Positions 15,941 to 39,477 of a stretch of DNA of 57,031 bases are shown in pieces. The number at the start of each line of letters is the position of its first letter. Within the stretch, counting starts at the first letter, position 1. The position numbers and the translations under genes were made by a program. A model generated the notes under the pieces. The model saw nothing but the letters and a program-made list of their open reading frames with translations, did no database searches and was not told where the DNA came from. The stretch covers positions 1 through 57,031 of the forward strand of contig JBAZZE010000004.1 in assembly GCA_041658955.1 (NCBI GenBank). Direction: 5' to 3'. This DNA comes from Candidatus Shapirobacteria bacterium (GTDB taxonomy: Bacteria; Patescibacteriota; Microgenomatia; UBA12405).

Positions 15941-18532
15941 ATGCTTAATATAACTTCCATACAAAAAACTCTAGCTCCGTATTTAATTTCGTTGCTCACC
16001 TCATTTAATCCTTTTATTACTCCACTCAAGATAGTTTTACTGGCTTTGGTGCTCTTATATGTCTGTTTTCAAATATTTCGGGTATATCTTTTCATTAAAC
16101 AGTTAAAAGAGAAAAGTATCCTTTTTGAGATTAAACCTCTCAAAAATACAGAACAGTCTTCATATACAACTCAGCAATTATTTGCCATTCTGCATGGGCT
16201 GGCCAGACAACGATCATTTATCAACCGTTTATTTGATATCCAAAAAACCTATTCTTTTGAGATCGTTTCGACGAAGAATGGCGGAATAACCTATTACACG
16301 AGAATTGGAGAAGATGAAGCTGACTTAGTTAAGAAAACCCTCTTATCCTATCTACCCGGAATCAGTGTAAAAGAAACGACTGATTATCTGGAGTTACTTA
16401 CTAAGCAACATACACGAATATCTAGTTATAGACTTTCACGACACTTTGCATACCCACTTAAACACCAAGAGGATTTAGCCAGCCATGATCCAATAGCATA
16501 CCTAACAGGAAGTATGACTAAGTTAAGTGACGATGATCTAACTGCATTTCAGGTCGTATTATCGCCTCTGCGTAAATCTTCACTTCCTGACGTTTCGCGT
16601 ATTTCTCATCTTATTTACTCAGGTAAAGATATTGTTTCAAACTTGGGCAATGATGCAAGCTCAAATCCAGTTGTAGTCTTATTCAAAATGCTCTTCGGTT
16701 TAATACTTCGTATACTGATGCTTCCATTCGGATTATTAGTCTTTATCACAACAGATGGCAGAGAAGGTCCGATGCTACGGCTTCCTACCGATATCGAACC
16801 ACTCAAAACACCAAACCCGTATCAGATGGAACTGGAACAGCTGGTAAAGAATAAATTAGATCAACAGTTATTCTCGACATCTGTACGGCTCATGGTAGCA
16901 AGCAATAATTATAGTGAACTAAGAAAACGGGAACGAGGTTTTCAATCTGCACTTTCCGCGCTTAATAATTCGGAGTACCAGGCACTCATTCCGTCATTTC
17001 GGATCAGGGTAAAGATATTTGATCGAATAATGGAATCACTTTACAATTTAAGATTTTTGCTTCCAACTAGATCATTTATTCTCTCGGCCACTGAGGTATC
17101 AGATCTCTATCACTTTCCCTATACTAGTACGACTAAGACTGAGGATTTGCTCAAGCAACACAGTAAAGAATTGCCCGCTCCATTATCACTTAAGCAGAAA
17201 CAAGAAAGTGATTTGTACTTTGGGACAAATACCTATGGTGGCACTGAGACTAAAATAGGGTTAACCGCTGACGAAAGACGGCGCCATGTGTATATTCTCG
17301 GAGCTACCGGCACAGGAAAGTCCACGATGTTGCTATCGATGATTAAGCAAGATATTGATCATAACAAAGGGTTATCGGTGATTGACCCACACGGTGATCT
17401 GATTGAGCAGATATTGTCTGTAATACCTCGCGAGAGGATCAAGGATGTAGTCTACTTTAATCCAGATGACATTAGCTACCCTATGGGCATCAATCTTCTT
17501 GAACTAACTCCAGGGTTAAATCCTGAAGATGCTATCAGAGAAAAAGAATTTATAGCAGAAAGTATTATCTCGGTCTTCCATAAAATCTACACCGATAAAT
17601 ACTCAGGGCCAAGAATGGAATACATATTGAGAAATACTATTCATACTGCCTTTACCGTTCCAGATGCTACTTTGTTTACAGTGTATAAACTCCTCATAAA
17701 CACGAGCTACCGAAAATCTGTTACCAAAAACCTGACAGATGAGAATCTTAACGATTTCTGGAAGTTTGAATTTGCCAAAGCGGGTGATTATCAAAAAGTG
17801 AAAATGATTTCTCCAATAACCAATAAGATCGGTCGTTTCCTGTTTTCTCCAACAGCTAAGCGAATACTCGAGCAGGGTAAGTCAACCGTAAACTTCGATA
17901 CCATTATGAATGAAGGGAAAATACTCTTATGCAATCTCTCGAAAGGCAAGATCGGAGAGGATAACTCAAGTGTTTTTGGAGTTTTAATCATGGCAAAGAT
18001 TCAGTTGGCTGCCTTAAAGAGAGCCAGGATGAAGCAGGAAGAAAGAAAAGACTTCTTCTTGTATGTTGATGAGTTCCAAAACTTTGCTACACCAGCGTTT
18101 GCCCAAATCCTCTCAGAGGCGCGAAAATATAGACTTGGCGCTATCTTAGCTCACCAAACCACCTCACAACTTGAAGATGTTTCACTCGTAAATATTACCC
18201 TAGCTAATACGGGTACAGTGATTTGCTTTAGAACCGCTAACCCAGAGGATGAGCGGATGATCTTGCCACAATTCAGGCCATATATTGAACAGGGTGAAAT
18301 CGCGAGCCTTCCCTCATATCACTTTTACATGAGGCTTGGAGCACTTAACCCAGAAGAACCATTTTCAGGTGTTACTGTTCCAGTACAAATCGAATACAGT
18401 CAGAATAGGGTTAATGAGGTTGTTGAATCGTCGAGAAAATTGTATGCCAAGTTCTACACTCCAGATATACAAATACCAGTCAAAAAATCTACTAATCAAG
18501 CTACACAAAAGATCTATTCTACAGTGCCATAA
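15941..18532 (+). CDS. Type IV coupling protein (VirD4/TraD/HerA-like ATPase)
   Basis: N-terminal TM, RRRHVYILGATGTGKS, IDPHGD, LYVDEFQNF, SEARKY, LAHQ. Confidence 0.88.
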   Translation: MLNITSIQKTLAPYLISLLTSFNPFITPLKIVLLALVLLYVCFQIFRVYLFIKQLKEKSILFEIKPLKNTEQSSYTTQQLFAILHGLARQRSFINRLFDIQKTYSFEIVSTKNGGITYYTRIGEDEADLVKKTLLSYLPGISVKETTDYLELLTKQHTRISSYRLSRHFAYPLKHQEDLASHDPIAYLTGSMTKLSDDDLTAFQVVLSPLRKSSLPDVSRISHLIYSGKDIVSNLGNDASSNPVVVLFKMLFGLILRILMLPFGLLVFITTDGREGPMLRLPTDIEPLKTPNPYQMELEQLVKNKLDQQLFSTSVRLMVASNNYSELRKRERGFQSALSALNNSEYQALIPSFRIRVKIFDRIMESLYNLRFLLPTRSFILSATEVSDLYHFPYTSTTKTEDLLKQHSKELPAPLSLKQKQESDLYFGTNTYGGTETKIGLTADERRRHVYILGATGTGKSTMLLSMIKQDIDHNKGLSVIDPHGDLIEQILSVIPRERIKDVVYFNPDDISYPMGINLLELTPGLNPEDAIREKEFIAESIISVFHKIYTDKYSGPRMEYILRNTIHTAFTVPDATLFTVYKLLINTSYRKSVTKNLTDENLNDFWKFEFAKAGDYQKVKMISPITNKIGRFLFSPTAKRILEQGKSTVNFDTIMNEGKILLCNLSKGKIGEDNSSVFGVLIMAKIQLAALKRARMKQEERKDFFLYVDEFQNFATPAFAQILSEARKYRLGAILAHQTTSQLEDVSLVNITLANTGTVICFRTANPEDERMILPQFRPYIEQGEIASLPSYHFYMRLGALNPEEPFSGVTVPVQIEYSQNRVNEVVESSRKLYAKFYTPDIQIPVKKSTNQATQKIYSTVP

Positions 18533-18671
18533 CTTTACCTACCGGTAGGAAAATATTATTTTTAGTTTAGGCCGATAAATAGATCCTTTTAACTTTTACT
18601 TTTACCCCTTATTCCTTATATATAAGGGAGAGGAATGATACAATCATTCCAGATTCTGCTCTACACATACT

Positions 18672-19445
18672 ATGGACAATCAAAAACTATCCACTCTACA
18701 ACTCAACATTCTTCACTATCTCTATCGCTTTCGCTTCTTAACCAGTCTACAACTTCAAAAACTTCTTACTCACAAAACTATCCGCCTGACTAACTACCAC
18801 TTACAACTACTCACTTCAAAAAATTACATCGGCAAACACTATACACGATCACTAGGCTTAGCTAATCTCCCAGCAGTCTATTATCTAACGTCAGGAAGTA
18901 TCCAGATATTAGAACAACAAGACAATATCGATAAACGAGCCTTGAAACGAATCTACAGAGAAAAAATCAGATCTCAACAATTTATCGCTCATACCTCATT
19001 TTTAGCAGAATACTTCTTACATCTAAGCCAAGAATCAGAAAAAACCAAGCACACACTCCATTTCTTTACTAAAACAGATCTACTGGCACACCCCTACATG
19101 CCTCACCCATTACCCGATGCTTATTTTGCTCGGGTAGATATTGCAGGCAATACAAAAAGATACTTTGTCGAAGTAGTTGAAGATAGCTCGCCTCGGTTTG
19201 CCTTGCGCAAGCGAGTCCAAGAGTTCTGTGATTATATCGATGACGGAAAATTTGAGGAGGCGACTAACCATCCATTTCCGGCCATACTTTTTATCTGTCC
19301 TGGATACGGCAGTATGATCTACCTAAAGAAACATATAGCCCGTATTTATGAAGAAACACCGCTTGATCAAGTAGATATATACCTTGCAACTAGAGAGGGT
19401 GCATTTTCAGGACATTGGGAAAAGGTGGAAGCGGAAGACGACTAA
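18672..19445 (+). CDS. Replication-relaxation (Replic_Relax) family protein
   Basis: N-terminal wHTH (RFRFLTSLQLQKL), HTSFLAEYF, PDAYF, YFVEV; directly downstream of the T4CP. Confidence 0.78.
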   Translation: MDNQKLSTLQLNILHYLYRFRFLTSLQLQKLLTHKTIRLTNYHLQLLTSKNYIGKHYTRSLGLANLPAVYYLTSGSIQILEQQDNIDKRALKRIYREKIRSQQFIAHTSFLAEYFLHLSQESEKTKHTLHFFTKTDLLAHPYMPHPLPDAYFARVDIAGNTKRYFVEVVEDSSPRFALRKRVQEFCDYIDDGKFEEATNHPFPAILFICPGYGSMIYLKKHIARIYEETPLDQVDIYLATREGAFSGHWEKVEAEDD

Positions 19446-19943
19446 CTACGGCATAAAGAAATAGTTATATTCATCAAATGGAAAATGCCCAGCGGGTTTA
19501 TTCAAGAGAAGATCTGCCATTTCCCACGCGCTCATAGATTCCGATATTCTATATTCTGCGTTTGTGTCGATAGTGCCGTCCTTGCCCACTTTGATTGCCT
19601 TGTCGCTTGGCGTGGTGTCTTTGGTGTGTTCTAGAGCGTATCTGAACGCTTTTTCATCTCGCACAAATCCATAATAGAAAAGATTCCCTATAAGTGCATC
19701 GAGTGTTACATCTGTACTAATCCTTAAATCTGCTGTTCCATCTACTCCTGGCTTCGATCTTATCTGTTCGGCTTCTGCTACGGGCATATGAAGGCGTTCA
19801 ATAAAATAATCTTCTACCTTTTTGGCTGATTCCCAATCTTTCCCTGGCGCTTTGAAATTTTCCTCGTTTGGTTTGGTAAAGAAATAATAACCACCGGTTG
19901 CCAACAATAAAAGCACAACCAATATTATTACTTTCTTGATCAT
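19446..19943 (-). CDS. Membrane-anchored protein resembling the MltG/YceG N-terminal domain
   Basis: Signal anchor; NLFYYGFVRDEKAF and EYRISESMSAWEMADLL resemble the YceG N-terminus; no catalytic domain follows. Confidence 0.5.
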   Translation of the reverse strand: MIKKVIILVVLLLLATGGYYFFTKPNEENFKAPGKDWESAKKVEDYFIERLHMPVAEAEQIRSKPGVDGTADLRISTDVTLDALIGNLFYYGFVRDEKAFRYALEHTKDTTPSDKAIKVGKDGTIDTNAEYRISESMSAWEMADLLLNKPAGHFPFDEYNYFFMP

Positions 19944-19966
19944 GCCTTTATTATAGACCTTTTAAG

Positions 19967-20170
19967 CTAGTAGTCGCCTAGGCGTCTCCCAAGTACGTAA
20001 GCAATTTCCTTTCTGCCTTCTTCTGTTTGCCTAAACTCATTAAACAGTCGAGCCCCTTTATCGCTTAAGAGCGGGATAAACTCGGGTAACGTATCCATTT
20101 CAATTTTTCTAAACTCTTGCAGTCGTAAATCGACTGTATAACCTTTAAATACTGGTAATACTCTGATCAT
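19967..20170 (-). CDS. Small hypothetical protein (67 aa)
   Basis: GAAAGGA SD upstream; co-oriented with the DUF2958 gene. Confidence 0.65.
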   Translation of the reverse strand: MIRVLPVFKGYTVDLRLQEFRKIEMDTLPEFIPLLSDKGARLFNEFRQTEEGRKEIAYVLGRRLGDY

Positions 20171-20229
20171 ATATTTTCCTTTCTCGGATACCCATCCGCG
20201 GGGTTGGGGCCCCGCGGTGGGTACAATAT

Positions 20230-20544
20230 TTATAATTTTGCACTGGGCATAACTTCGCTGATTCTCTTCTCGTCAAAATACAAATCTCTCTCAATCCCTA
20301 ATCCAAAGTTGCCATGATAGCTTTCGAGTTCATCCAGAGAAAAAGAGCCCCATTCGTCATTCCAATCCCCAAAGATGGAAACAAATCCGAAAAACTCTCT
20401 CGATGCTGGATCGTACTCGGTTGCGTACCATGTACCCGCGCCTGTTGGGTTAAAGAATTTCGCAACCACAACAGGATCGCTACTGTCTTCTTGTCTGCCT
20501 ACCTTGGCGAACCTTTCTAATAGTCCTTTTGTAAGTAGTTTCAT
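20230..20544 (-). CDS. DUF2958 domain protein
   Basis: VVAKFFNPTGAGTWYATE, FFGFV, EWGSFSLDEL, IERDLYF; SD AAGGAGGTG. Confidence 0.85.
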   Translation of the reverse strand: MKLLTKGLLERFAKVGRQEDSSDPVVVAKFFNPTGAGTWYATEYDPASREFFGFVSIFGDWNDEWGSFSLDELESYHGNFGLGIERDLYFDEKRISEVMPSAKL

Positions 20545-20586
20545 AATTTCTCACCTCCTTTTTGGCTTATTCCCGAAATTAATAGT

Positions 20587-20719
20587 TGGGAAGTATGGCC
20601 ATACTTCCCATACCAGGGGAACCCTCAAGCAGGGTGAAATTTTGCAAGGGCAAACGAAGTGCAGTTTATTGGAGGCGTAGCCGGAAACCCTTGCAAAAAG
20701 AGGGGTAAGACCCCTTCTT
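20587..20719. repeat. Cluster of inverted repeats
   Basis: Perfect 24-bp palindrome 20587-20610; 11-bp arms TTTTGCAAGGG (20640-20650) / CCCTTGCAAAA (20688-20698); AGGGGT-AAG-ACCCCT near 20701-20715. Confidence 0.85.
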
Positions 20720-20743
20720 ACTGTGTTGTGATATAACTAATTT

Positions 20744-21214
20744 GTGCCTAAAACGAAGCTTATAAAAGTTGATACAGAGTTTGTCCAAAAATGGGCTGGT
20801 GTTCTTGAATCAACTTTTGATGAACACGGAATGCTGACAAAGGTAATGGAAGTAAATCTTCAGGATAAAGGTGTTGAATACAGGCTCAGCATTGTCGCTG
20901 GACTCAAATTGAAATATATTATTGAGCTTGAACCCGATATAGCATTAGCAATGGCTTCACCTACGGGACATGTAAAGATAGAAGCGCCGATTCCCGGAAC
21001 CCAATTTGTAGGCATTACGGTTCCAAAACCCAAAGAAGCCGAACCCGTGAAGGAACAGAAACTTAAAGTGGTACATCTGACAAAAGAAGTAAAAGTCCCA
21101 GAATATTCATTTATTGAAGTAACTCGTGACCTGTTTACACTAGTGTTTAGATCAATCGGAAAATATAGCTATATTTTGGCTGAGAAAACTCAAAAAATCG
21201 GACAGAAGAAATAG
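20744..21214 (+). CDS. Stand-alone FtsK alpha-domain protein
   Basis: YRLSIVAGLKLKYIIELEPDIALAMA...VKIEAPIPGTQFVGITVP; no Walker motifs; GTG start. Confidence 0.72.
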   Translation: MPKTKLIKVDTEFVQKWAGVLESTFDEHGMLTKVMEVNLQDKGVEYRLSIVAGLKLKYIIELEPDIALAMASPTGHVKIEAPIPGTQFVGITVPKPKEAEPVKEQKLKVVHLTKEVKVPEYSFIEVTRDLFTLVFRSIGKYSYILAEKTQKIGQKK

Positions 21215-21219
21215 AAAAA

Positions 21220-23310
21220 TTACTTGTCCAGAATAACCTTTATATCGGTCTTCTCCAAGTCTAAATGTTCAGCTAATTTAACGACAATATCTCGCTTGAG
21301 ATTGGTGTTCGTATTATTTTCATAAAAATATGAGGTTTCATTTATCGCATTAGGTGTCCTGAGTTCGCTTGAATCTGAGGTTATATATCGATGCAAAAAG
21401 TCGTCACTTGTTACATAGTCATAGAGTTTGTCATCTAACATGAATAGTTTAGTAAGTATTGTCCCAAGCACAGCAGCCCAACTATTACACTCTGTAACTT
21501 CACCAAGTATTGAAACTCCCTTTACTTTCGATCCCGTTAGGTCCTTATCATCATAGAACGAGAGCTCAGTTTCATTCACAACGGGAACAAAGTTAGTCTT
21601 TGGAAGTGGCCAAATCTTTTCAATTTGGTCATACCACCATGATTCGCGTTCCTCTAGCGCTAGAATATCCCATTTTTCTTTATTCTTTACGTATTGATTA
21701 ATCAGGAGAGGGCTTTCGTTGAATCCATTTTCTGTCGTCTTTTTGATCTCAAAATCGTTGTTTGAATACTTTGAGTTATATCCTGTTAACGTCAGGTTCG
21801 GCAGAGTATGTAAATATTGCTGATGGATTTGTTCGTAATTGTCACCTAAAGACTCAATCCACGCTTTATTCAGAGTTTGGGGCATGACATGTTCAATCGT
21901 GAGCTGAATCTCTTGCTTGGCGATTTGTTTGAGGAGAGTAGATTCTTTGGACTGATCGTCTACGGAACTAAGAACAAAATAAATATAGTAATTTCGCTGA
22001 CTGTACATCGGATTGTTTTTAATAGCGCTCCTGATCTCAGCTTCTTTGGGTATGCGTAGTCCACCAGTTTTATCAGTCAAAATGTATCCAAGTATTTCGG
22101 AATATTTTTGGTCGGGATATTCAGATAGGTATTTCTCTATATCTTTATGGATTGATGAAAATAAGTTGTTAACGCCAGTTGTTGGGATATTGCAAATAAT
22201 TCTTCTCGTTAGATATGTTTCTACACACTCAAAAACTTTATAGAGCTCCGTGTTATCTAATTTTCCGTGGGTGTATTCATCCAAGACTCTCATCAAAAAA
22301 GGGAATGGAGTTTCAAGTTTCAAGTAATTGAGCCTAAATCCCTTATCTGCTACAAATTTATAAACTCCGTCCTCGTCGAGATTAAATTTCAAAAAGATAT
22401 AGTGATATAAATAATCGACAACTTGCCCATAAAATTCTTCTAGCTTTGAGATATCACCCTGAACCTCGCCAATGTACGAATAAAAAAGCTTTTTAAACTC
22501 TGGATATACTTGTTCGATTTTAACTTCCTTCTGTAATTTACTAGTCAGATAAAACTTGAAAAAATCTGAAATGTAGTCTTTATTGATATACGTCAATCGA
22601 CTTTCAATTTTTTGCCAATATTTCTTAAGTACCAGATCTCTCGCTTGGTCGTTATTAAGCATTAGGGCAAAGTTACGAATTTTGTCTCCATCAGTTAGTG
22701 GCTTACCCGTGGAGTTTATGCTCTCAAAAATCTTTTGCGGGTTATCATCAGTAGCGTCTAGCGCGATGGTAACGACCTCAAAATTCTTCAGAATGTCTAT
22801 ATATTTTTGAAGATCCGTTTTCTCTTTAAAATATAGGTAAAATTGCTCATATGCTTGATATAGCTTACTGTCTTTACTGTGTGGGCCAAATTCTCGTTCA
22901 AATATCTGTTCAAATATTTCGTTATCAGTCGTAACAGTGCGCAATTTTATGCGATTTTTCTCTTCATTGTAATCATGACTGTTGTATAAATATTGATCTT
23001 TAATTGCTTGAGCTGGAATTGTAGAGGATGCTGGGTTATCCGAAATTATGTGATATAGAGCAGTCAACATCAATAAAACTGTGGTAGCCCTCTGTTGTCC
23101 GTCGATGATGGTGCTATTGTTTCCCTCATTAAGATAAACAATGCTGCCAAAATAATGATTTTTACTTTTGACTAAGACTGATTCAAGATCATCAATAAAA
23201 GAACTAATATTTGCTTTATCCCATGAATAAGGGCGTTGAAAGTCGGGAATTACGAAGTATTTCCCGGGTGTATAGAGAAACGTATTAATGTTGTCGTGAG
23301 TCACCTTCAT
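21220..23310 (-). CDS. gmrSD: GmrSD-type restriction endonuclease (DUF262 + DUF1524 HNH) with extra C-terminal domain
   Basis: IPDFQRPYSW, IIDGQQRATT, FESINSTGKPL, TIEHVMPQ, NLTL...NSKYSN. Confidence 0.88.
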   Translation of the reverse strand: MKVTHDNINTFLYTPGKYFVIPDFQRPYSWDKANISSFIDDLESVLVKSKNHYFGSIVYLNEGNNSTIIDGQQRATTVLLMLTALYHIISDNPASSTIPAQAIKDQYLYNSHDYNEEKNRIKLRTVTTDNEIFEQIFEREFGPHSKDSKLYQAYEQFYLYFKEKTDLQKYIDILKNFEVVTIALDATDDNPQKIFESINSTGKPLTDGDKIRNFALMLNNDQARDLVLKKYWQKIESRLTYINKDYISDFFKFYLTSKLQKEVKIEQVYPEFKKLFYSYIGEVQGDISKLEEFYGQVVDYLYHYIFLKFNLDEDGVYKFVADKGFRLNYLKLETPFPFLMRVLDEYTHGKLDNTELYKVFECVETYLTRRIICNIPTTGVNNLFSSIHKDIEKYLSEYPDQKYSEILGYILTDKTGGLRIPKEAEIRSAIKNNPMYSQRNYYIYFVLSSVDDQSKESTLLKQIAKQEIQLTIEHVMPQTLNKAWIESLGDNYEQIHQQYLHTLPNLTLTGYNSKYSNNDFEIKKTTENGFNESPLLINQYVKNKEKWDILALEERESWWYDQIEKIWPLPKTNFVPVVNETELSFYDDKDLTGSKVKGVSILGEVTECNSWAAVLGTILTKLFMLDDKLYDYVTSDDFLHRYITSDSSELRTPNAINETSYFYENNTNTNLKRDIVVKLAEHLDLEKTDIKVILDK

Positions 23311-23327
23311 AATGCAATTATACTCAT

Positions 23328-24614
23328 TTATTCATAAAACCAGCTATAGTCAGGGTTTTCAACCTCTACAATCTTACTTTTAAGCATTTTATAGACGCCT
23401 TCTTCCTGAACTGTTTGCCAGGTACCTTCATAAAAGTGCATCTCCGCTTCGTTATCTACCCAGTTTTTTGTAGAGAATTTTACAAATGCCGTATCTTTGC
23501 TGTTCTCAAACTTGTCGGCCTTGATCACATCTACATCAAGAATATCCGTAAACCTCGCAGTCCACTCCTCAAAATTAGTTTTCTTGAGGTATTCTTGACT
23601 CAGTAATTTGAATCCTTCCTCCATTCTTCTAGCTTTTAAGTAGGTATAAAAAGCTTTCACTGCGTCTTCCGGAGATTTAGAAGCATCGACTTCAATTTTC
23701 GTCACATTCTGATCAGTAAATGACGGAATCATCGTGTTGGCCTGATACCCAGAGATAAATAGCGAGAGCCCAGCCAAGGTCATTGTGTTGATTCCAACGA
23801 CATTTCCACATTGATCAGTTAGTGGTCCACCACTCATCCCTTTTACCAGACTAACATCAGTTTGGATATATACGACAGGGTCTCTTTTTGATTTACGATA
23901 CGCAATAAAGTTTCCTTTGGCAATGGTGGCCTGACCTACCAAGTCCGTACCGAGTGGGTAGCCGGTGGCGATAAGCGGTTCGTCTTCATATATCGTTAAT
24001 TCATCATTAGGCAGAGGCAATACTAGGTCAAGATAAGATTTATCCGTCGTCAAAACAGCGAGATCAGCGTCTTTGTTGCCTGTGATCTTGATTGGGGTAA
24101 AAAATTTGCCGTCTGGTAAAATTACTTTTGGACTAGGTTCATCTGCTATCACATGGAAATTGGTGAGGATTTGATTCTGGTTGATAAAGAAGCCTGTACC
24201 CTCGGAATACCCGCCTACAATGCGTACTACAGAGCCTTGTAGTTTATCTTTAGCTCCTATTGAGCATAGGAATTTACCATAGAAACCATATTGTGTTCTT
24301 AGGTAATCGGCAATCACGAAGAGTGAAGCTGCCATATAGATAACCACCCCTAGTATAAAAAGGGACTTGAGAAAATTCCGTAGTCCCCGGAAGGGATAAA
24401 TAATTGTTTCTATTAAAATTTTAAGCAAGGAGAACATCAACCGAAATATAAATCTGATCAGATAATATGCGGAGTAGGTAACGAGCTTAATTGGAAATAA
24501 ATACACCGGAAAGAGAAGTTTGTGAAAATAGGCTTTGAGTCGAAGTGTGTATTTAGCCCAGAGTTGCCTCAGATTTTTAATGAGGACATCAATCTTTTTT
24601 TCCAATAAGTCCAT
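23328..24614 (-). CDS. Membrane-anchored trypsin-like (S1) serine protease
   Basis: GTGFFI, LTNFHV (His), DLAVL (Asp), GMSGGPL (Ser); hydrophobic N-terminus; extra C-terminal domain. Confidence 0.88.
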   Translation of the reverse strand: MDLLEKKIDVLIKNLRQLWAKYTLRLKAYFHKLLFPVYLFPIKLVTYSAYYLIRFIFRLMFSLLKILIETIIYPFRGLRNFLKSLFILGVVIYMAASLFVIADYLRTQYGFYGKFLCSIGAKDKLQGSVVRIVGGYSEGTGFFINQNQILTNFHVIADEPSPKVILPDGKFFTPIKITGNKDADLAVLTTDKSYLDLVLPLPNDELTIYEDEPLIATGYPLGTDLVGQATIAKGNFIAYRKSKRDPVVYIQTDVSLVKGMSGGPLTDQCGNVVGINTMTLAGLSLFISGYQANTMIPSFTDQNVTKIEVDASKSPEDAVKAFYTYLKARRMEEGFKLLSQEYLKKTNFEEWTARFTDILDVDVIKADKFENSKDTAFVKFSTKNWVDNEAEMHFYEGTWQTVQEEGVYKMLKSKIVEVENPDYSWFYE

Positions 24615-24619
24615 AATTA

Positions 24620-25435: not shown

Positions 25436-25471
25436 CCTTTTAGACTTACTTATCGGCTATAATCGCATTAT

Positions 25472-31110: not shown

Positions 31111-31114
31111 AGTC

Positions 31115-34100
31115 TTATATTATCTTCCATTTAATCGTAAACAAGGTCTCAAGTTTTGCTTGTTGAGCTAGTCTTGCCTCGACAGACTCGAGTAATTTTT
31201 CTTTCTTTAATTCTACATCATCTTGAGTCTCAAATAACCGTCTTCTCATGTCATTACGCTTCTTTTCCCAATCCTTAATTTCTCGTTGTGCTTTTAATTT
31301 CTCATCAAGATTGATTATTTTCTTTGCATTTGTCTTAGCAGTCTTTATATCAATATCAAGCTTTCTCAGATCGATTTCTAGACCTTTTTTAACGTCTTCT
31401 GCCCAATTATCGAGCTTATCTACCTCGTGATCAAAGAAGCTACCATTGCGCTCGGCAATCTGAGTAGAAACGATCTTTATGTATTTATCTTCCAACTCAT
31501 TCAATTTGCCCTTATTCTCATCTGAAATTTGTTCTGGGGTGGTAGAGTCTGCGGATAATTGGAATATTTTCTTCATAATTTCGGGTTCTATAACATCTCC
31601 GGAGTCCGTAATAGCAGAGAGGATGATATTATCCTCGGCTTCAAAAGATTCGACAGTAAAGTTGGATATTTTTAACATTCCCCCCATTCCGATAAATGGC
31701 TGAAGGACTGAAATGATTGTTTGGTTATCTGAATAATTAAAAATAATTTCTGTTTCGTCTGACGGCTTTGACTTGATATCAGCTAATATTCGTTGAGCAA
31801 GCGAATGACCGGGGCGATAAACGTGTGCATCTTCAATATTTTTGCCAATCTTATATGGACCAGCATCAATTTCTTCGTTGGGGAAAGGGTTATTTTTCAA
31901 TACGAATGAATATTCATGTTCAGCAAATTCTGCATTGTCACCAAGATAATACCTCGTTGTATCCCACAGCCACCGGTTATACGTGTCGAGGTACATCGTG
32001 CTTTCTCGCAGATTGAGTTTAAGTTTTTCATGAACTTCTGCATCGAAGTTCTCAAGGAGAGTTTGGCGAGTTTCGGATAGATTATTCTGAATACTGTCAT
32101 CCATTTCTTCCTGTAGTTTATCGAAAGCAGTATTAATTTCTTCCGTCGTTCGACAATCCTGATAGATTGCAGCGATTCGCTTTTCAAAATCAACACCTGA
32201 CTCGATATTACCCAAGACCTCATCACTTGCTCCAAACACGCCTTTAAATAGCTTGAATTTTTGATCTAGTAGGTCGTACACGCGACTATCCGCTGCATTT
32301 TTACGGTTCACAAAGTTAATTACCACAACGTCATGCTTCTGACCATATCGATGACATCTTCCAATCCGTTGTTCAATACGCTGAGGATTCCATGGCAAGT
32401 CATAATTAATGACCAGAGAACAAAATTGTAAATTCACACCTTCCGCGGCAGCCTCTGTTGCAATCATTATGTCTGCTTCGTCATGGAAGTAATCGATGAG
32501 AGCTGACCTCATGTCTGCGGTCTTTGACCCCGTGAGCTTATCAGTATCTTTATTTCTCTCAAGCCAATTCTTGTAAATTTCTTTTGATTTTGGATCGTTA
32601 TTTGATCCGTTGAACAAAACAATTTTATCCTTGTATCCATTTTCCGGAAGAAGGGTTTCGGATAAATACTTTTGGGTAATAGTCGATTCAGTAAAGATGA
32701 TTGCTTTTTGCTTTGCTCCGAGATCTTTCGTCATCTCAAAACCTTTTTTCAAGGCAACAAGAAGTGCATCTCCTTTTGAATTGGTAAAAATGGCTTTTGC
32801 TAAACCTCTAAATTTCTCCAAGTCTTTCTTTTCCTGTTCCATGAGTGGAATATCGTCTTTGGTATAGACCTTAGATTTCTTGGTTGAATCTTCATCCTCG
32901 TCACCCTCCTCATCGTCTATCCATTCCTCGGACATTTCCTCAAATCCCTCAAAGTTTTGGGCAAGATCTGTGGTGTCAAACTCAGGTGGCATTGTTTCAA
33001 GCTTTTTCTTGGTTTCATCAATAACTAGACCGAGTTTAATTACGAGATTATTTAGGGTACTAGCAATGGCAAACGAAGATGATGCCAGAAGTTTACGCAA
33101 AATAAGCGTCATCAGTTGGCGTTGACTTGAGGGAAGTGCATACAGCGCTGGTCGTTGTAAATATTCCGACATACCGTCATACAATTCAATTTCTTGTTTT
33201 GTTGGTATGTAGTCTTGGGTAATTGGTTTACGTTCAGTGTATTTAATGTATTCCAACACTTGTCTACGAAGCGTACGAATACATACTGGCTTTAATCGAT
33301 TCCGCAGGTCAGTAAATAGAAGTTGTTTTGGATCGAGTATTTCATCTTCATCTGGTAATCCCATTTCTCTGGTAACAACACCTTTTCCAACACCTGATTC
33401 AGTAGACCATTTAATATCTTTTATGTGACTTGTAAGCTCCTGTTCTCTTGGAGCATGGGAATAGTTAGCTTTAAAACTTTTTAGATCACCAAATACATGA
33501 TCATCAATAATGCTCACTAAACCATAAAGTTCTAAGAGCGAATTTTGTAGAGGAGTAGCAGTCAATAGAATCTTTGGTACATCTGAAAGTGAGTACTTTA
33601 TTTCACGAGCTATTTTATTACTGGTCTTGTAAACATTTCTTAAGCGGTGAGCCTCATCGATAACCGATAAATCCCATTTGGTTTGTTTGACATACGGAGC
33701 TTTGCTTCTCGCAAAATGATATGAACAAATAATAATCTTATCTTCTTGATTAAATGGGTTCAGGTTGCCGTCTTTTATAGCCTGGTTAAATGATTTAGCT
33801 TCTAATATTACTGAGGGCAAGAAAAACTTTTCCTGCAATTCCATGTTCCATTGCTTTCGTAGTGCTGCGGGAACAATCAAAAGTATTTTTCGTTTTCTCT
33901 CTGCCCATTTTTGAGATAGGACGAGGCCAGCTTCAATAGTTTTGCCAAGTCCTACTTCATCAGCTAATATGGCACCCATAGATAGCGGTGACTTAAAAGC
34001 AAATAAAGCTGCTTCAATTTGATGAGGATTTAGGTCTACTTGAGCATTTGAGAGGGTTGAAGATAATTTTTCTAAACTATCGGATGAACATCTCTTGGTT

Positions 34101-34168
34101 AGTTCATATGCAAAGTATTTGGCGTGATATGGAGTTATTTTTTGCATAGAATGATCTGATTTTATCAC
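31115..34168 (-). CDS. SNF2-family helicase co-transcribed with mod-res
   Basis: LADEVGLGKT, IDEAHRL, TATPLQN, ATEAAAEGVNL, QRIGRCHRYGQ; C-terminal coiled coil. Confidence 0.9.
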   Translation of the reverse strand: MIKSDHSMQKITPYHAKYFAYELTKRCSSDSLEKLSSTLSNAQVDLNPHQIEAALFAFKSPLSMGAILADEVGLGKTIEAGLVLSQKWAERKRKILLIVPAALRKQWNMELQEKFFLPSVILEAKSFNQAIKDGNLNPFNQEDKIIICSYHFARSKAPYVKQTKWDLSVIDEAHRLRNVYKTSNKIAREIKYSLSDVPKILLTATPLQNSLLELYGLVSIIDDHVFGDLKSFKANYSHAPREQELTSHIKDIKWSTESGVGKGVVTREMGLPDEDEILDPKQLLFTDLRNRLKPVCIRTLRRQVLEYIKYTERKPITQDYIPTKQEIELYDGMSEYLQRPALYALPSSQRQLMTLILRKLLASSSFAIASTLNNLVIKLGLVIDETKKKLETMPPEFDTTDLAQNFEGFEEMSEEWIDDEEGDEDEDSTKKSKVYTKDDIPLMEQEKKDLEKFRGLAKAIFTNSKGDALLVALKKGFEMTKDLGAKQKAIIFTESTITQKYLSETLLPENGYKDKIVLFNGSNNDPKSKEIYKNWLERNKDTDKLTGSKTADMRSALIDYFHDEADIMIATEAAAEGVNLQFCSLVINYDLPWNPQRIEQRIGRCHRYGQKHDVVVINFVNRKNAADSRVYDLLDQKFKLFKGVFGASDEVLGNIESGVDFEKRIAAIYQDCRTTEEINTAFDKLQEEMDDSIQNNLSETRQTLLENFDAEVHEKLKLNLRESTMYLDTYNRWLWDTTRYYLGDNAEFAEHEYSFVLKNNPFPNEEIDAGPYKIGKNIEDAHVYRPGHSLAQRILADIKSKPSDETEIIFNYSDNQTIISVLQPFIGMGGMLKISNFTVESFEAEDNIILSAITDSGDVIEPEIMKKIFQLSADSTTPEQISDENKGKLNELEDKYIKIVSTQIAERNGSFFDHEVDKLDNWAEDVKKGLEIDLRKLDIDIKTAKTNAKKIINLDEKLKAQREIKDWEKKRNDMRRRLFETQDDVELKKEKLLESVEARLAQQAKLETLFTIKWKII

Positions 34169-34287: not shown

Positions 34288-34310
34288 GCCCCTCCGATAG
34301 GGGCTTTTTT
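34288..34310 (+). terminator. Intrinsic terminator-like hairpin in the operon leader
   Basis: GCCCCT-CCGAT-AGGGGC followed by TTTTTT. Confidence 0.7.
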
Positions 34311-34364
34311 GTAGCCAGACCTGCCAAACTATTAACAAATTATTTATTTGTAAGGAGGTGGGTT

Positions 34365-34700
34365 ATGAACAAAAAATTAATCACATTATCTTCACTAGCC
34401 ATAACCGCGCTAGCATTTGCATCTCCGGCCTACGCTGCAACAGGTGACGTAGCCAACATCGAAACATTCATCAAGAGTGTCATTCTCATTCTCGTTAAAG
34501 TCGCAGGTCTCGTATCTGCTGGATTCTTTGTCTGGGGTGGATTTGGATATATTACTAGCTCGGGCAATCCAGAGATGCTCGACCGCTCCAAGAAAACTAT
34601 TTTGTACTCTGCAATCGGACTGGCAGTAGTACTAGGTGCATTTGTCTTGACCAACATCGTATCTGACTTGGCGACCGGTGCATTTGGTGCCACGCAGTAA
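34365..34700 (+). CDS. VirB2/TrbC-like pilin
   Basis: Signal peptide ending AYA, two hydrophobic segments, GGFGYITSSGNPE...SKKTI; SD AAGGAGGTG. Confidence 0.8.
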   Translation: MNKKLITLSSLAITALAFASPAYAATGDVANIETFIKSVILILVKVAGLVSAGFFVWGGFGYITSSGNPEMLDRSKKTILYSAIGLAVVLGAFVLTNIVSDLATGAFGATQ

Positions 34701-34728
34701 ATACAAAATATGCACAACATAAAACATT

Positions 34729-36006
34729 ATGCGAAAACTGATGCTCTTGGCCGGTATCTTACTGACTTCGTTATTCTTCCCTCATTCTGTCTTGGCCGCA
34801 TCACCAATTCCTGAGATTAGCTCGTTTACTTCTGATACGCTCAAGATAATTACTTTGATTGCTTCAGCTTCTGCCGTATTTTTTCTACTACGCGGTGGAT
34901 ACCTCTACATCACATCAACTGGTAGACCAGAGGCACTAGAAGAAGCCAAGAAAACAATTCGTAATGCTCTGCTTGGGCTCGTGCTTGTCATCGCGGCCAA
35001 TGGGATCGTTTCACTTCTACAAGGAGCACTGGTAGGCAATTCTGATAGTTCTACAATTACCAACCTTCCTCTTACTCAAATTGAGAGTGTAGCGCCTAAC
35101 GAGGGTTTAACCCAAGTTCTCATCGATGCTGTTAATGGCTTTATTCAAAACATTGTGGAAAGTTCCACAAAGCCAGTCGTGGATGGGATCATGACACTTC
35201 TTACAACAACTCCTGAATTACTGACAAACGCCACTATCGTCAAGTTCTGGCTCATCATGCTTGGTATAACCGACACACTCTTTGTACTGGTTGTGGCACT
35301 CTTGGGACTTCAATTTATGAGTGCATCCACATTCGGGTTTGAAGAAATCGAGTTTAAACACCTCCTACCCAGAATTGGGTTAGCGTTCCTCGGAACGAAT
35401 GTATCGTTATTTCTGGCGGATTACGCCGTAAAAACATGTAACGTACTTGTGGCAGGTGTAATATCTGCAACCGGAGGACTCAACCATGCATGGGTCACGA
35501 ACGCAATTACTCTACAAAATATTACAACTGGTACAGCTCCGCTCATCACTTTGATTTTTCTACTTCTGTTCTTGATCGTAGCGATTGTGCTTCTACTTAT
35601 GTATATCAGCCGTTTGATTGTTATAGCTCTTGGAGCTGTACTCTCTCCATTCATATTCTTACTTTGGACACTCCCTAAGACCGCCGACTTTGCTGAAATG
35701 GCAATTAAGAGCTATCTAGTCTCAGTATTTATGATTTTTATTCATGTCGTAACTATTCAACTGGCCGGATCATTCCTGGCACTACCTGAGCAAACCAATA
35801 ACTCACTAATCTCAATTGCGGTAGCCATTGGACTTTTACTCACGTTGCTTAAGATCCCAAGCTTCTTGATGCAACTAATTTTATTTTCTCGAAGTGTGGG
35901 AACGGTCAAACACATGGGAAGTCAGATTATTAACGTCATGAGTACTGATACAGCTCACAAAGGTACAGTTGGCTCCAAGACACCTAGAAAGACCTTAAAC
36001 GTATGA
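34729..36006 (+). CDS. Pilin-like domain fused to a VirB6/TrbL-like polytopic membrane protein
   Basis: N-terminal GGYLYITSTGRPE...AKKTI is paralogous to the upstream pilin; about 6 further TM helices with LSPFIF, LPKT. Confidence 0.72.
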   Translation: MRKLMLLAGILLTSLFFPHSVLAASPIPEISSFTSDTLKIITLIASASAVFFLLRGGYLYITSTGRPEALEEAKKTIRNALLGLVLVIAANGIVSLLQGALVGNSDSSTITNLPLTQIESVAPNEGLTQVLIDAVNGFIQNIVESSTKPVVDGIMTLLTTTPELLTNATIVKFWLIMLGITDTLFVLVVALLGLQFMSASTFGFEEIEFKHLLPRIGLAFLGTNVSLFLADYAVKTCNVLVAGVISATGGLNHAWVTNAITLQNITTGTAPLITLIFLLLFLIVAIVLLLMYISRLIVIALGAVLSPFIFLLWTLPKTADFAEMAIKSYLVSVFMIFIHVVTIQLAGSFLALPEQTNNSLISIAVAIGLLLTLLKIPSFLMQLILFSRSVGTVKHMGSQIINVMSTDTAHKGTVGSKTPRKTLNV

Positions 36007-36473
36007 GAACAACAATCATTCCAGCACAAATCACGACAGTTGAAGACAAAATCGCAGGATCTCTCAATTTCGCACAGATACTACTTCTGATGTTGCCTGT
36101 TCTCTGGGGGACACTGGTATATGCGATATTTATTCCAACGATGAAGCTAGCTCCGTACAAGGTAAGCTTGGTGCTATTGGTTAGTGCTACCTCACTTATT
36201 TTGGCGATCCGAGTTAAAGATAAAATCATTGCGGAATGGATTGGAATATTACTTCGCTACAAATTACGTCCGAAATTCTATATCTTCAATAAAAATGACA
36301 TAACTGAGCGGTTAGTTGATTTGCCATTTGAATCTGTAGCAAACCACAAAAAGGCAGTAGCAAAAACAACCAAGAGGCTCACTAAAGAACTGTCGGTCAA
36401 GGAGCTTATCAAATTTGAGCAGGCAATGGCATCAAAGAATCTGGCTGTATCGTTTCGGTACGGGAGGAAATGA
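36003..36473 (+). CDS. PrgI-family (VirB3-like) protein
   Basis: IPAQITTVEDKIAGSLNFAQ, two TM helices, RYKLRPKFY. Confidence 0.8.
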   Translation: MRTTIIPAQITTVEDKIAGSLNFAQILLLMLPVLWGTLVYAIFIPTMKLAPYKVSLVLLVSATSLILAIRVKDKIIAEWIGILLRYKLRPKFYIFNKNDITERLVDLPFESVANHKKAVAKTTKRLTKELSVKELIKFEQAMASKNLAVSFRYGRK

Positions 36474-37087
36474 CTATGACACTATTCAATAAATCTCAAT
36501 CATCGCGACAGCAAATACAAATCAAAAAAGTCTTGGATAATGTTCTGGTTTTGCCTAACCAGGAATATCGGTTGATTTTGGAAACCTCATCCATAAACTT
36601 CGAGCTCAAGAGTGAAGAGGAACAGGACGTCATGATCGATAGTTTCCAAAACTTTCTAAATGCCTTACCTTGCCAGATTCAAATCTTGGTACGAGTTCGT
36701 GAGATTGATATCGACAAATATGCTGAAGATGTGGCTAGATCAAAAGATAAAGAGAAAGATCCGATCTATCGCAAGCAAATCGAGGGATATAGTGCTTTTG
36801 TTAAAAAACTTGTATCTGGTAATAGCATTCTCTCAAGACGATTTTATATTGTCTTGCCGTATCACCACCCAGACCGGCACGAAGATTGGAAAGTAATCAA
36901 AGAACATTTAAATCTAAATCGCGATATTGTCGTCAAAGGCTTGGAGCGGATGCAGATGAAAGCTAAAACTCTCTCTAGTATCGAGATTATTAACTTGTTC
37001 TACAGTTTTTATAACCCTGAATCGGTTAAGACCCAGGCGGTTACAAAAGAAGCATTATCGGCATTATTCAAACACAATTATGTTTAA
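36470..37087 (+). CDS. VirB4-associated accessory T4SS protein
   Basis: SSINFELKSEEEQD...FLNAL, RRFYIVLP; between PrgI and VirB4. Confidence 0.68.
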   Translation: MTMTLFNKSQSSRQQIQIKKVLDNVLVLPNQEYRLILETSSINFELKSEEEQDVMIDSFQNFLNALPCQIQILVRVREIDIDKYAEDVARSKDKEKDPIYRKQIEGYSAFVKKLVSGNSILSRRFYIVLPYHHPDRHEDWKVIKEHLNLNRDIVVKGLERMQMKAKTLSSIEIINLFYSFYNPESVKTQAVTKEALSALFKHNYV

Positions 37088-38867
37088 TATCACCAAAATC
37101 AAACCTATTCGTGATTGGCAAAAGCGCCAAAAGAAAAAACGCTTAGCGCACCAAGCTATCAACGTCACGTTTGGCGAACAAGACCAACTCGACCTTATTT
37201 CCTATGCCGGACTTAAAGAGGAATCGAGCTATTTACAGATAAACGATACTTTTGTCCGAACACTCTTTGTTTCGGGATACCCATATGTTGCCTCTACTGG
37301 CTGGCTTTCAATGCTGGTGAACTTTAACCACAATATTGACATTAATTATCACGTTGAACAGATTGATCCTCTCATAGCTCTGCCCAAGCTTAACCGCAAA
37401 ATCACAGAACTTGAGTCCACCAAGCGCACCATGCTCAAAGAAGGACGGGTTATCGGAAGTGAAATCACTGATCCGCTTGAATCTGCCATGGAACTCAAAG
37501 ATAAAATTCAGCGGGGCATGGAAAAACTGTTCCAAGTTTCCATATATATGACTGTCACCGCTGAGAGCTTGGTCGAACTGGATAAAGTGACGAAGCTGTT
37601 AGAAACGGTTATGCAGACAAGGCTTTTCTATATAAAACCCGCGACTTTCCAACAAGTCGAAGCCCTGCAATCAGTCTTACCTCGAGGTGAAAATAAGCTG
37701 GCTCAAAAGAGAAACTTGGATAGCTCAAGTGCTGCGCTTACATTCCCATTTGTGTCCTCCGAACTGGTACAGGAGTCCGGAATCCTCTATGGCATCAACA
37801 AATCGAATAATTCTCTGGTTATCATTGACCGCTACAGTCTAAACAATGCCAACTCCATTATTTTTGCCCAGTCTGGTTCAGGCAAGAGCTTTACTGCCAA
37901 AGTAGAGATCCTGCGTCACCTCATGCAAGGTACAAAAGTCATAGTCATTGATCCAGAACGCGAATATAAGCAACTGGCTAAAAGCGTCAACGGAACCTAT
38001 ATCAAACTATCAAGCACCTCGAAAGAAAAGATTAACCCATTTGATTACTCCCAAACCTCCGTCACGGGTGAGAATAGCCTCGCTGAGCACATACAAGACC
38101 TCACAGAGCTCATATCGCTCATGGTTGGCAGTCTGACTTCGGAAGAGCGGGCAACCGTTGATCGCGCGCTCCTGCAAACATATAAAAATGCGGGCATGAG
38201 TAAACGCAAGAATGGTAGGAAACCAGCGAAAATTGTCTATCCAGTCCTCAAGGATTTCTATAAGGAACTAAAATCAATGAAGCACAAAGACCTCTGTAAC
38301 AGACTTGAGCGGTTTGTAAAAGGCTCACTTGGTGGTGTTTTTGATTCTCAGACAAATATCGAGATGAATAATCGCCTTGTAGTGTTTGATATCAAGGATC
38401 TCAATGAATCACTTCGTCAGATCATGATGATGGTGGTTGCCAATTTCGTCCATAGTGAGGTCAAACAGAACCCACAAAAAAGAATGCTGGTCATTGATGA
38501 GGGTTGGATTCTACTACAGGAGCCAGAAAGCGCCCGATTTATCTCAGGACTTGTCAGGCGCGCCAGAAAATACTATCTGGGGGTCACAATCATTACTCAA
38601 CAAGCAAATGACTTCCTGTCACAGGAGTACGGGAAGGCTATTGCTAGCCAATCTTCGCTTCGTATTCTCATGCGCCAAGATACTACCACCATCAAAAAAG
38701 TGGCGGAAGAATTCCATCTTTCGGCCTTTGAACAGCATTACCTATTAACGTGTGAACGCGGTGAGGCTCTCATCATTGCTGATCAAAACCATGTAGCTGT
38801 AAAAGTGGTTGCCTCCGAAGAAGAGCACCCACTCCTCACAACCGATCCTCGGGAGATCTACATCTGA
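37080..38867 (+). CDS. virB4: VirB4-like conjugation ATPase
   Basis: FAQSGSGKSF, IDPEREY, FDIKDL, LVIDEGW, RRARKY, ITQQ. Confidence 0.9.
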   Translation: MFNITKIKPIRDWQKRQKKKRLAHQAINVTFGEQDQLDLISYAGLKEESSYLQINDTFVRTLFVSGYPYVASTGWLSMLVNFNHNIDINYHVEQIDPLIALPKLNRKITELESTKRTMLKEGRVIGSEITDPLESAMELKDKIQRGMEKLFQVSIYMTVTAESLVELDKVTKLLETVMQTRLFYIKPATFQQVEALQSVLPRGENKLAQKRNLDSSSAALTFPFVSSELVQESGILYGINKSNNSLVIIDRYSLNNANSIIFAQSGSGKSFTAKVEILRHLMQGTKVIVIDPEREYKQLAKSVNGTYIKLSSTSKEKINPFDYSQTSVTGENSLAEHIQDLTELISLMVGSLTSEERATVDRALLQTYKNAGMSKRKNGRKPAKIVYPVLKDFYKELKSMKHKDLCNRLERFVKGSLGGVFDSQTNIEMNNRLVVFDIKDLNESLRQIMMMVVANFVHSEVKQNPQKRMLVIDEGWILLQEPESARFISGLVRRARKYYLGVTIITQQANDFLSQEYGKAIASQSSLRILMRQDTTTIKKVAEEFHLSAFEQHYLLTCERGEALIIADQNHVAVKVVASEEEHPLLTTDPREIYI

Positions 38868-38868
38868 C

Positions 38869-39477
38869 ATGAATCCAAAACTGTTCCTAACCCTCTGGTC
38901 GTTTCGCAAGGAACTAAAATTCGTATTCCTAGCATTCCTCACTATCCTCATGGTGCCGGTTATCGGGGTCATCTTACTCACCAGAGTAGGTATCAACATC
39001 ATTTCCGATAAATTAGTTGAAAGTAACCCAGTCACACAGTCAATTGAGATCAAAGATCCAACGTCCGGAGAAGTTGTTAAATCCATATCTCCACAGGTCG
39101 CTTGGCCTGTTCACGGGGTAATAACACTAGAATTTGGCCAATCCAGTCTCTATCAAGTCTTTCACACTGGTATTGATATTGCGAACCCCTCAGGGCAAAT
39201 CGGTGATCTTATCAACCCCGCAATGGATGGCGAAGTCATGTATGCTGGAGAAATATTCTGGGGGTATGGAAAGCACGTTATCATTGACCACGGTAACAAT
39301 ATAACGAGCATCTATGGCCACTTAGATAAGATTTTCGTCTACAAAGGCCAGAAAGTAACTATTACAGACACCATTGGGAAAGAGGGACAAACTGGATGGG
39401 CTACCGGACCACACTTACACTTTGAAACGAGGATATATGGGATTCCGGTTAATCCAAGAGTATTTTTAGGCGAATGA
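38869..39477 (+). CDS. M23-family peptidase (cell-wall hydrolase)
   Basis: N-terminal TM, FHTGIDIA, YGHL, TGPHLHFE; start MNPKLF. Confidence 0.9.
   Translation: MNPKLFLTLWSFRKELKFVFLAFLTILMVPVIGVILLTRVGINIISDKLVESNPVTQSIEIKDPTSGEVVKSISPQVAWPVHGVITLEFGQSSLYQVFHTGIDIANPSGQIGDLINPAMDGEVMYAGEIFWGYGKHVIIDHGNNITSIYGHLDKIFVYKGQKVTITDTIGKEGQTGWATGPHLHFETRIYGIPVNPRVFLGE

Follow-up and report, generated by a model that had tools for sequence, protein, structure and literature searches.

Positions 13638-44967 of a 57,031-nucleotide contig from a Candidatus Shapirobacteria bacterium (GenBank assembly GCA_041658955.1, contig JBAZZE010000004.1) probably constitute a recently mobile integrative and conjugative element (ICE) in a Microgenomatia-type genome of the candidate phyla radiation (CPR). 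The stretch analyzed, hereafter the window, is the entire 57-kb contig, one of the 39 that make up the 1.03-Mb genome; the element occupies 31,330 bp of it, with tRNA-Leu(GAG) on its left and tRNA-Gln on its right. We infer from the sequence that this ICE carries out DNA transfer. An earlier note on the same DNA had recognized a conjugation system at 15941-39477 and had suggested an ICE. That range does hold the conjugation core, and it omits the serine recombinase, the XRE regulator, the right-hand cargo and the PLD gene described below. The ICE reading is supported by a serine recombinase at the left end and by an empty site in a genome of the same genus, neither of which would be expected of the alternative raised at the time, namely fixed chromosomal modules never associated with an integrase.

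The boundaries of the element were obtained from element-free genomes and from other integrated copies (labels beginning with G, C and L denote genomes, contigs and loci in the comparison). In G004, a complete genome of the same genus, the empty site reads tRNA-Val, a tRNA-Leu(GAG) 100% identical to that of the window, 4 nt, and tRNA-Gln, and the tRNA-Leu and tRNA-Gln genes are also neighbors in G003, G005, G006, G007 and G011. In the window, tRNA-Leu(GAG) (13555..13639) and tRNA-Gln(UUG) (44984..45055), both found on the + strand with ARAGORN, lie 31.3 kb apart; tRNA-Gln is the host gene that directly follows tRNA-Leu in element-free genomes. These comparisons show that the element has inserted into the 3' end of tRNA-Leu(GAG), its integration target. 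Homology to the integrated copies in G041, G042 and L043 begins at the tRNA-Leu, and on the right it stops at 44967 in comparison with G041 and at 44971 in comparison with G042, within the sequence ..CCCAGATGGTGCAC. A right end abutting tRNA-Gln (44981-44983) was also considered and ruled out, as the comparison with G041 and G042 puts the end at 44967.

The attachment sites read ..GTCGGCAC|CATACAGAAC for attL and ..GATGGTGCAC|ATTAAG for attR. Because the two have the sequence GCAC(C)A in common, the crossover is placed inside it, at the CCA end of the tRNA, with the attL copy at 13634-13639 and the GCAC of attR at 44964-44967. The junctions fall at identical nucleotides in four independent assemblies, and GC skew is negative over the insert and positive in both the left and the right flank. 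As integrated, tRNA-Leu(GAG) ends in an encoded CCA (13637-13639), part of which comes from the element; in G004, where the site is empty, CCT comes after the tRNA.

A gene for a large serine recombinase, the integrase, spans attL (13454..15262, - strand). Its product matches the Pfam models Resolvase, Recombinase and Zn_ribbon_recom (PF00239, PF07508 and PF13408), all above their cut-offs, and is XisF- and Ccr-like according to NCBIfam. The open reading frame (ORF) of the integrated form encodes 602 amino acids (aa), and its final ~61 codons are antisense to tRNA-Leu. Joining the ends of the element in silico yields a 578-aa integrase ORF whose last ~36 codons are supplied by the right end (44856..44967, - strand, located through the end of homology with G041 and G042 and through reconstruction of the ORF); attP lies within the integrase gene. 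In this circular form the integrase stop codon overlaps (ATGA) the start of the right-end backbone gene, which encodes a PLD-family (Nuc-like) protein with a PLDc_2 domain (44338..44859, - strand). Homologs of this protein (46-48%) adjoin family elements in G001, G007, G010 and G052. Upstream of the integrase and overlapping its start is a small conserved ORF of 86 aa (15243..15503, - strand), 66-99% identical in L041-L043 and without a match in Pfam, which is a candidate excision accessory factor. It is followed by an XRE-type HTH regulator (15651..15875, + strand; HTH_3, 46.9 bits) that is divergent to the integrase and 93-100% identical in L041-L043.

Sequence comparison shows that the element belongs to a family with a fixed backbone and exchangeable cargo. 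A scan with the relaxase described below, using one genome per species, recovered 29 loci at 62-100% identity in genomes labeled Gottesman-, Shapiro-, Pace- and Nomurabacteria, Parcubacteria, Microgenomates and Saccharibacteria, and a protein search added Collier- and Woesebacteria. Loci on contigs of sufficient length share the gene order tRNA, serine recombinase, type IV coupling protein (T4CP), relaxase, orf165, orf67, DUF2958, cargo, pilin, pilin-polytopic protein, PrgI-like protein, TrsD-like protein, VirB4 and M23 peptidase, with the XRE regulator seated between recombinase and T4CP. The tRNA on the left flank is Leu in six of these loci and Glu in two.

Several lines of evidence show very recent spread between distantly related hosts. 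The earlier note had proposed a search for near-identical elements at the same site in other taxa, and such copies, at 86-99% nucleotide identity, are indeed found at tRNA-Leu: identity to the copy in G041 is 98.7% across 7.2 kb and 93% in the cargo and secretion genes, and identity to the copy in G042 is 86-90%. The host genes flanking these two copies have only 25-62% protein identity to their best matches in the window's genome (25-47% beside the G041 copy), and the housekeeping TGT protein is 32% (G041) and 35% (G042) identical to that of the window's genome. In a maximum-likelihood tree of VirB4, the ICE copies of G000, G041 and G042 form one tight clade with end branches of 0.002-0.01 substitutions per site, whereas the core VirB4 copies of the same three genomes are about 0.9 apart (sum of branch lengths). 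Nor is the module fixed in the lineage, as the family relaxase is present in 3 and the core VirB4 paralog in 39 of the 41 genomes of the order. Three of the four other genomes of the genus lack both the family relaxase and the family VirB4, and in G004 and G003 the tRNA site is uninterrupted.

Some loci depart from the common arrangement. At 9916-10738 of L065 (JAZDOQ010000001.1), a relaxase homolog with 64% identity begins right where tRNA-Leu(GAG) ends; neither a recombinase nor a T4CP gene intervenes, and the locus appears to be what is left of a truncated family member. G043 encodes two ICE-type VirB4 proteins (C1:151952 and C9:24821; 96% and 93%) in addition to the core one, and G041 encodes ICE-type copies at 99% and 68% (one of them at C12:11329), so several family members can share one genome. 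In L038 (G010:C27, 61-216) and L039 (G013:C8, 1350-1764), an extra copy of the first ~27 nt of tRNA-Gln precedes the complete tRNA gene, and a small GIY-YIG-like ORF is found between the repeats in G013 and after the tRNA in G010; these duplications may mark a small mobile insertion in or beside tRNA-Gln.

The first of two conjugation modules opens with a VirD4-type T4CP of 863 aa (15941..18532, + strand), which matches TrwB_AAD_bind, TraG-D_C and T4SS-DNA_transf and is 64-99% identical across the family. Two transmembrane helices are predicted in it, at residues 25-43 and 251-269, which would leave ~200 residues outside the membrane, an unusual arrangement for VirD4-type proteins. The next gene (18672..19445, + strand) encodes a putative relaxase of 257 aa with a Replic_Relax match (PF13814; 45.4 bits, cut-off 25.3), consisting of a winged helix-turn-helix (wHTH) and a PD-(D/E)XK-like domain. 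Proteins with PF13814 are MOBC in CONJscan terms (PMC5357655), and on that ground we count this protein as MOBC; the statement in the earlier note that no MOB relaxase is present has to be revised accordingly.

An AlphaFold (AF2) model of the relaxase built from 120 homologs has a predicted local distance difference test score (pLDDT) of 95.8. Its N-terminal third matches MarR-, PadR- and GntR-type wHTH structures with probability 1.00, and the rest is ordered alpha-beta-beta-beta-alpha-beta, which fits a PD-(D/E)XK core; the full-length model matches AF2093 and FokI weakly (TM 0.30-0.34). The acidic residues E97, D149 (in the PD motif), E/D167 and D/E170 are conserved in 84-109 of the 120 homologs. 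The link to MOBC is made through the Pfam profile together with the fold, and the protein would be at best a diverged member of that class. MOBC enzymes such as TraX of pAD1 are restriction-endonuclease-like with an N-terminal winged helix, and a covalent intermediate has not been detected for them (PMC12857230).

The second module encodes a type IV secretion system (T4SS) in six consecutive genes on the + strand. The first is a VirB2/TrbC-type pilin (34365..34700; TrbC 37.5 bits, T4SS_pilin 36.7 bits) with a signal peptide and two transmembrane helices. It is followed by a pilin domain fused to a polytopic membrane protein (34729..36006; T4SS_pilin 40.4 bits), in which a hydropathy scan finds seven hydrophobic segments and which also matches the Mbov_0395 pilin-like family weakly. 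A PrgI/VirB3-like protein with two transmembrane helices (36003..36473) matches the PrgI model of Pfam below its cut-off and has the same position as the PrgI-like gene in the core locus. The gene called accessory in the earlier note (36470..37087) encodes a TrsD-like protein, that is, a free-standing VirB4 N-terminal domain, which aligns to residues 3-176 of conju_CD1110 and to TrsD and is 26% identical to the product of the gene preceding core VirB4. Next is a VirB4 ATPase of the CD1110 (MPF_FATA) type (37080..38867; conju_CD1110, P-loop_TraG) that scores 377.7 bits against the NCBIfam equivalog conju_CD1110 (cut-off 325) and is 82-99% identical to family copies and 39-44% identical to core CPR VirB4. 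The last gene encodes an M23 peptidase (38809..39477; Peptidase_M23, 95.4 bits) anchored by a transmembrane helix at residues 39-57, which is likely the cell-wall hydrolase of the T4SS, in the role of VirB1.

All backbone ORFs are full length relative to their family counterparts, and the T4CP, Replic_Relax, pilin, PrgI, accessory, VirB4 and M23 genes named in the earlier note are present and intact at these coordinates according to Pfam, NCBIfam and PADLOC. The two modules are separated by cargo, as had been noticed, and the absence of outer-membrane components likewise stands, with zero Pfam matches to VirB7, VirB9 or VirB10 among the ORFs of the element. For the gene then described as pilin-VirB6, the pilin half is recovered by T4SS_pilin and the VirB6 half is suggested by topology.

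This T4SS is not the only one in the genome. The core locus, on contig C6, encodes PrgI-like, TrsD-like, VirB4 and M23-containing proteins, and the genome also encodes two more T4CP paralogs and a pilin array; a second relaxase was not found in it. In a tree of 25 VirB4 sequences, the ICE clade (support 100/99) is separate from the core CPR clade (96/99), and the order of these clades relative to two plasmid VirB4 proteins is not settled by the tree.

Between the relaxase gene and the first cargo region are three small backbone genes on the - strand and a structured non-coding block. orf165 (19446..19943) encodes a membrane-anchored conserved protein of 165 aa, 61-99% identical in family loci and with 313 homolog clusters. 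With its transmembrane anchor and 140-aa domain it was considered as the missing VirB8-like component and rejected, as its model (pLDDT 85.7) lacks an NTF2-like fold and matches MltG/YceG alone, non-significantly (E 1.8-5.4). orf67 (19967..20170) encodes a conserved 67-aa protein, 60-97% identical in family loci. The DUF2958 protein (20230..20544; Pfam, 68.6 bits) is 74-99% identical in all loci of sufficient length, and a literature search for DUF2958 returned nothing useful.

The non-coding block (~170 nt, 20545..20716), upstream of the DUF2958 gene, was recognized from the family alignment and from covariation. It is kept in 21 of 22 family members, and its end coincides exactly with the start of the variable cargo. 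The block contains a perfect 24-bp palindrome (20587-20610), a long-range 12-bp stem (20640-50 pairing with 20688-98) and a terminal GC hairpin (20701-16). The palindrome shows compensatory changes: one of its pairs occurs as U-A and as C-G in eight sequences each, and two more pairs are also compensatory. No Rfam family matches the block, and a chance match to preQ1-II (E 0.45) falls in the neighboring region 20168-20244 alone. Such a structure could serve for symmetric protein binding, as a hairpin in transferred single-stranded DNA, or as an RNA. We favor an origin of transfer (oriT) or a single-strand origin, in which case DUF2958, orf67 and orf165 would be leading-region genes.

Cargo is found in two regions, which Pfam and PADLOC were used to annotate. 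Region 1 (20744..34168), a defense island of 13.4 kb between the relaxase and T4SS modules, encodes an FtsK_alpha fragment, GmrSD, a trypsin-like protease, HD_4, DUF2779, type III Res and Mod, and a DrmD-like SNF2 helicase. Region 2 (39503..44114, + strand) encodes a 1185-aa HEAT-repeat protein, a NERD nuclease-related protein and orf98. Region 1 is missing from the compact copy in G042 (18 kb) and from the copy in G010, and in G041 part of it is common and the rest is replaced; NERD and orf98 are common to G042, and the HEAT gene is in neither G041 nor G042. Since the G010 and G042 copies are without the defense cargo and that of G041 is partly replaced, the element evidently has two cargo slots, one past the non-coding block and the other past the M23 gene. 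The FtsK alpha-domain ORF that opens region 1 is free-standing (156 aa, 20744-21214) and is also found in the G041 copy (98%) and in L049 (46%). The HEAT-repeat protein (39503-43060), with weak matches to that repeat and no PADLOC match, is cargo specific to the copy in the window.

One member of the family appears to reside outside the CPR. It is located on JAIOHL010000169.1 (G052:C69), a contig of 123.8 kb in a 7.6-Mb Anaerolineae bin, and its proteins are 69% (T4CP), 69% (relaxase), 66% (TrsD-like) and 82-84% (VirB4) identical to those of the window. GC content is 52-54% in the first 24 kb of this contig, where Wood-Ljungdahl proteins are encoded, namely CO dehydrogenase/acetyl-CoA synthase, RACo and MTHFR; to our knowledge, these are not carried by CPR genomes. 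From 31.8 to 104.8 kb there is an island of ~73 kb with lower GC (~40-50% in 4-kb windows; 40-42% in the ICE genes). It is bracketed by complementary halves of a comM/yifB-type gene, corresponding to residues 275-509 and 1-283 of ComM of the window's genome, and both halves have 52.5-53.5% GC. We considered whether the contig is an assembly chimera and rejected this, as the island is flanked by complementary halves of a single gene of host GC. It is not plausible that two chimeric joins would fall within one gene, and the island therefore appears to be a genuine composite one, located in the chromosome of a non-CPR bacterium. Within it, the full ICE family member occupies ~34-57 kb, and other T4CP-like and DUF2958-like genes are also present, which suggests mobile elements in tandem. 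The closest relative found of the Anaerolineae copy, at 84-89% nucleotide identity, is in a 0.8-Mb genome. The suggestion in the earlier note that such elements may move from CPR cells to their hosts gains a lead from this comM-inserted copy. It is conceivable, and we put it forward tentatively, that the family crosses the phylum boundary, with conjugation carrying it between CPR epibionts and the larger bacteria that are their hosts or neighbors.

In the mechanism that we propose for the ICE, the large serine recombinase would excise a circle by recombination of attL (..GGCAC|CATACAG) with attR (..GGTGCAC|AT), restoring the 578-aa integrase ORF, the stop codon of which overlaps the first codon of the PLD nuclease gene. 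The MOBC-class relaxase, with its winged helix and PD-(D/E)XK-like nuclease domain, would bind and nick the origin of transfer, for which the palindrome and hairpin block at 20545-20716 is the best candidate. The VirD4-type coupling protein would pass the DNA to a compact monoderm-type T4SS made up of two VirB2-like pilins (one fused to a polytopic VirB6-like protein), the PrgI/VirB3-like and TrsD-like proteins, VirB4 and the M23 wall hydrolase. In the recipient, the recombinase would integrate the element at the 3' end of a tRNA.

A number of observations weigh against this reading. The active-site pattern of the relaxase lacks the canonical lysine two residues past the second acidic residue; a tblastn search of 72,556 plasmids in PLSDB (E 1e-3) returned zero matches, the prototypes TraX and MobC included, and a search of PDB sequences returned nothing relevant and no solved relative. 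In the T4SS, none of the VirB6 models match the pilin-polytopic protein, which is VirB6-like by topology alone, PrgI is recognized at 22 bits, under the Pfam cut-off of 27, and a VirB8-like component was not found in the element. Every genome compared is a metagenome bin. Finally, CPR bacteria are naturally competent (PMC12857230), and for that reason the element could also spread by transformation followed by site-specific integration.

The last point belongs to the alternative that survives best, which we nevertheless consider unlikely. It holds that the island is mobile and that DNA is not a substrate of its T4SS: the spread would be due to natural transformation or some other vehicle and to subsequent integration through the serine recombinase, the T4SS would be an accessory copy of the epibiosis apparatus present in all CPR bacteria, and the T4CP and Replic_Relax proteins would help to replicate or maintain the circle. 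Epibiotic growth requires the core CPR T4SS, which is considered non-conjugative (PMC12102498; PMC12857230), and the ICE operon has the same order as the core locus (PrgI, TrsD, VirB4, M23), yet the VirB4 clade of the ICE is separate from the core clade, and an organ for interaction with the host would not be expected within an Anaerolineae chromosome. Similarly, a role in circle replication would agree with the original description of the Replic_Relax family as serving replication and relaxation (PMC3424549), but a T4CP gene directly followed by a MOBC relaxase gene is the standard mobilization pair (PMC5357655), and the genes for T4CP, relaxase and T4SS form a set of constant order in ~29 loci and occur nowhere else in these genomes.

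We find it improbable that the island is a decayed or domesticated remnant, which arrived by conjugation in the past and is now fixed and immobile. The foreign 61-codon tail of the integrated integrase ORF, antisense through the tRNA, could be taken as a sign of decay, but the altered tail is family-wide, arises from the position of attP within the gene and would revert upon excision. While the truncated relative in L065, with its relaxase gene abutting tRNA-Leu, is what such decay might produce, all backbone ORFs of the element in the window are intact, a copy with 98.7% nucleotide identity is found in a very distant host, the element's relaxase and VirB4 are lacking in three of the four other genomes of the genus, and the tRNA site is uninterrupted in G004 and G003. 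An assembly or binning artefact, in which a foreign mobile element was misjoined to a CPR contig, can practically be dismissed: although all data come from metagenome bins and some loci are implausibly labeled 'Gammaproteobacteria' or 'Pseudomonadales', both flanks of the insert are on one contig and belong to host tRNA genes that are adjacent in six relatives, the junctions recur at the same nucleotides in independent assemblies, and it is not plausible that two chimeric joins would fall precisely on the att site.

Firmicutes harbor ICEs and conjugative transposons that combine a large serine recombinase with an MPF_FATA T4SS, for example the CTn2/CD1110 family and Tn5397. Like these, the element in the window has a single large serine integrase, a VirB4 of the CD1110 family, a wall hydrolase encoded after VirB4 and no outer-membrane parts; unlike them, it has VirB2-type pilins, a VirB4 split into TrsD and ATPase, a MOBC relaxase and an attP inside the integrase gene. 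VirB2-type pilins in Gram-positive systems have not been found outside Patescibacteria (PMC12857230). A comparable triad of VirD4-type coupling protein, PF13814/MOBC relaxase and serine integrase is present in the streptococcal IME_Class_8 (Coluzzi et al. 2017, PMC5357655). Those elements differ in being mobilizable only, with no T4SS of their own, and in their occurrence in Firmicutes, and BLAST-level similarity between them and the element was not detected. The relaxase of the element resembles TraX (pAD1) and MobC (CloDF13) in combining an N-terminal winged helix with a restriction-endonuclease-like domain, and all are non-HUH. The oriT of pAD1 has five direct repeats 70-120 bp from nic, whereas the candidate in the element is a palindrome with nested hairpins.

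In a survey of 3,035 genomes of Patescibacteria, Quinonero-Coronel et al. (2025) found VirB4 in 2,417, together with 109 relaxases in 103 genomes, of which MOBC was the commonest class (58) and 39 were next to t4cp (PMC12102498). They concluded that a minority of these bacteria have conjugative potential and that the T4SS of the Patescibacteria clade seems specialized for other roles. The survey treats the T4SS as a chromosomal organ; integrases were not sought, the terms 'integrase' and 'recombinase' are absent from its text, and elements were not delimited (PMC12102498). The loci described there have the same monoderm MPF_FATA-like set as the element, comprising VirB4, TrsD, PrgI/VirB3, VirB6-like protein, VirB2-like pilins and an M23-type hydrolase. 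The T4SS of the element differs from them in being a second, sporadic copy within a bounded ICE, with a VirB4 clade apart from the core copies sampled. A full-text literature search found no description of an ICE in Patescibacteria. The element is an ICE of known general design that represents an undescribed family, and its unusual features are the VirB2-type pilins in a monoderm system, the split VirB4 and the attP within the integrase gene.

In one bounded, recently mobile element, a streamlined version of the CPR T4SS is combined with an integrase, a coupling protein and a relaxase of the MOBC class, in a genome that retains its core copy of the system. The locus makes it possible to ask in concrete terms if CPR bacteria conjugate, which partners they have and what envelope is crossed. 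Defense islands travel between CPR lineages on such elements, and possibly into a genome of Chloroflexota. With its defined att sites, candidate oriT and cargo slots, the element might be developed into a tool for organisms in which genetic manipulation is difficult. If conjugation across the phylum boundary does take place, CPR bacteria would be donors or recipients in gene flow between phyla, the monoderm T4SS with its pilins would function in mating, and the element would be a natural vector for CPR genetics.

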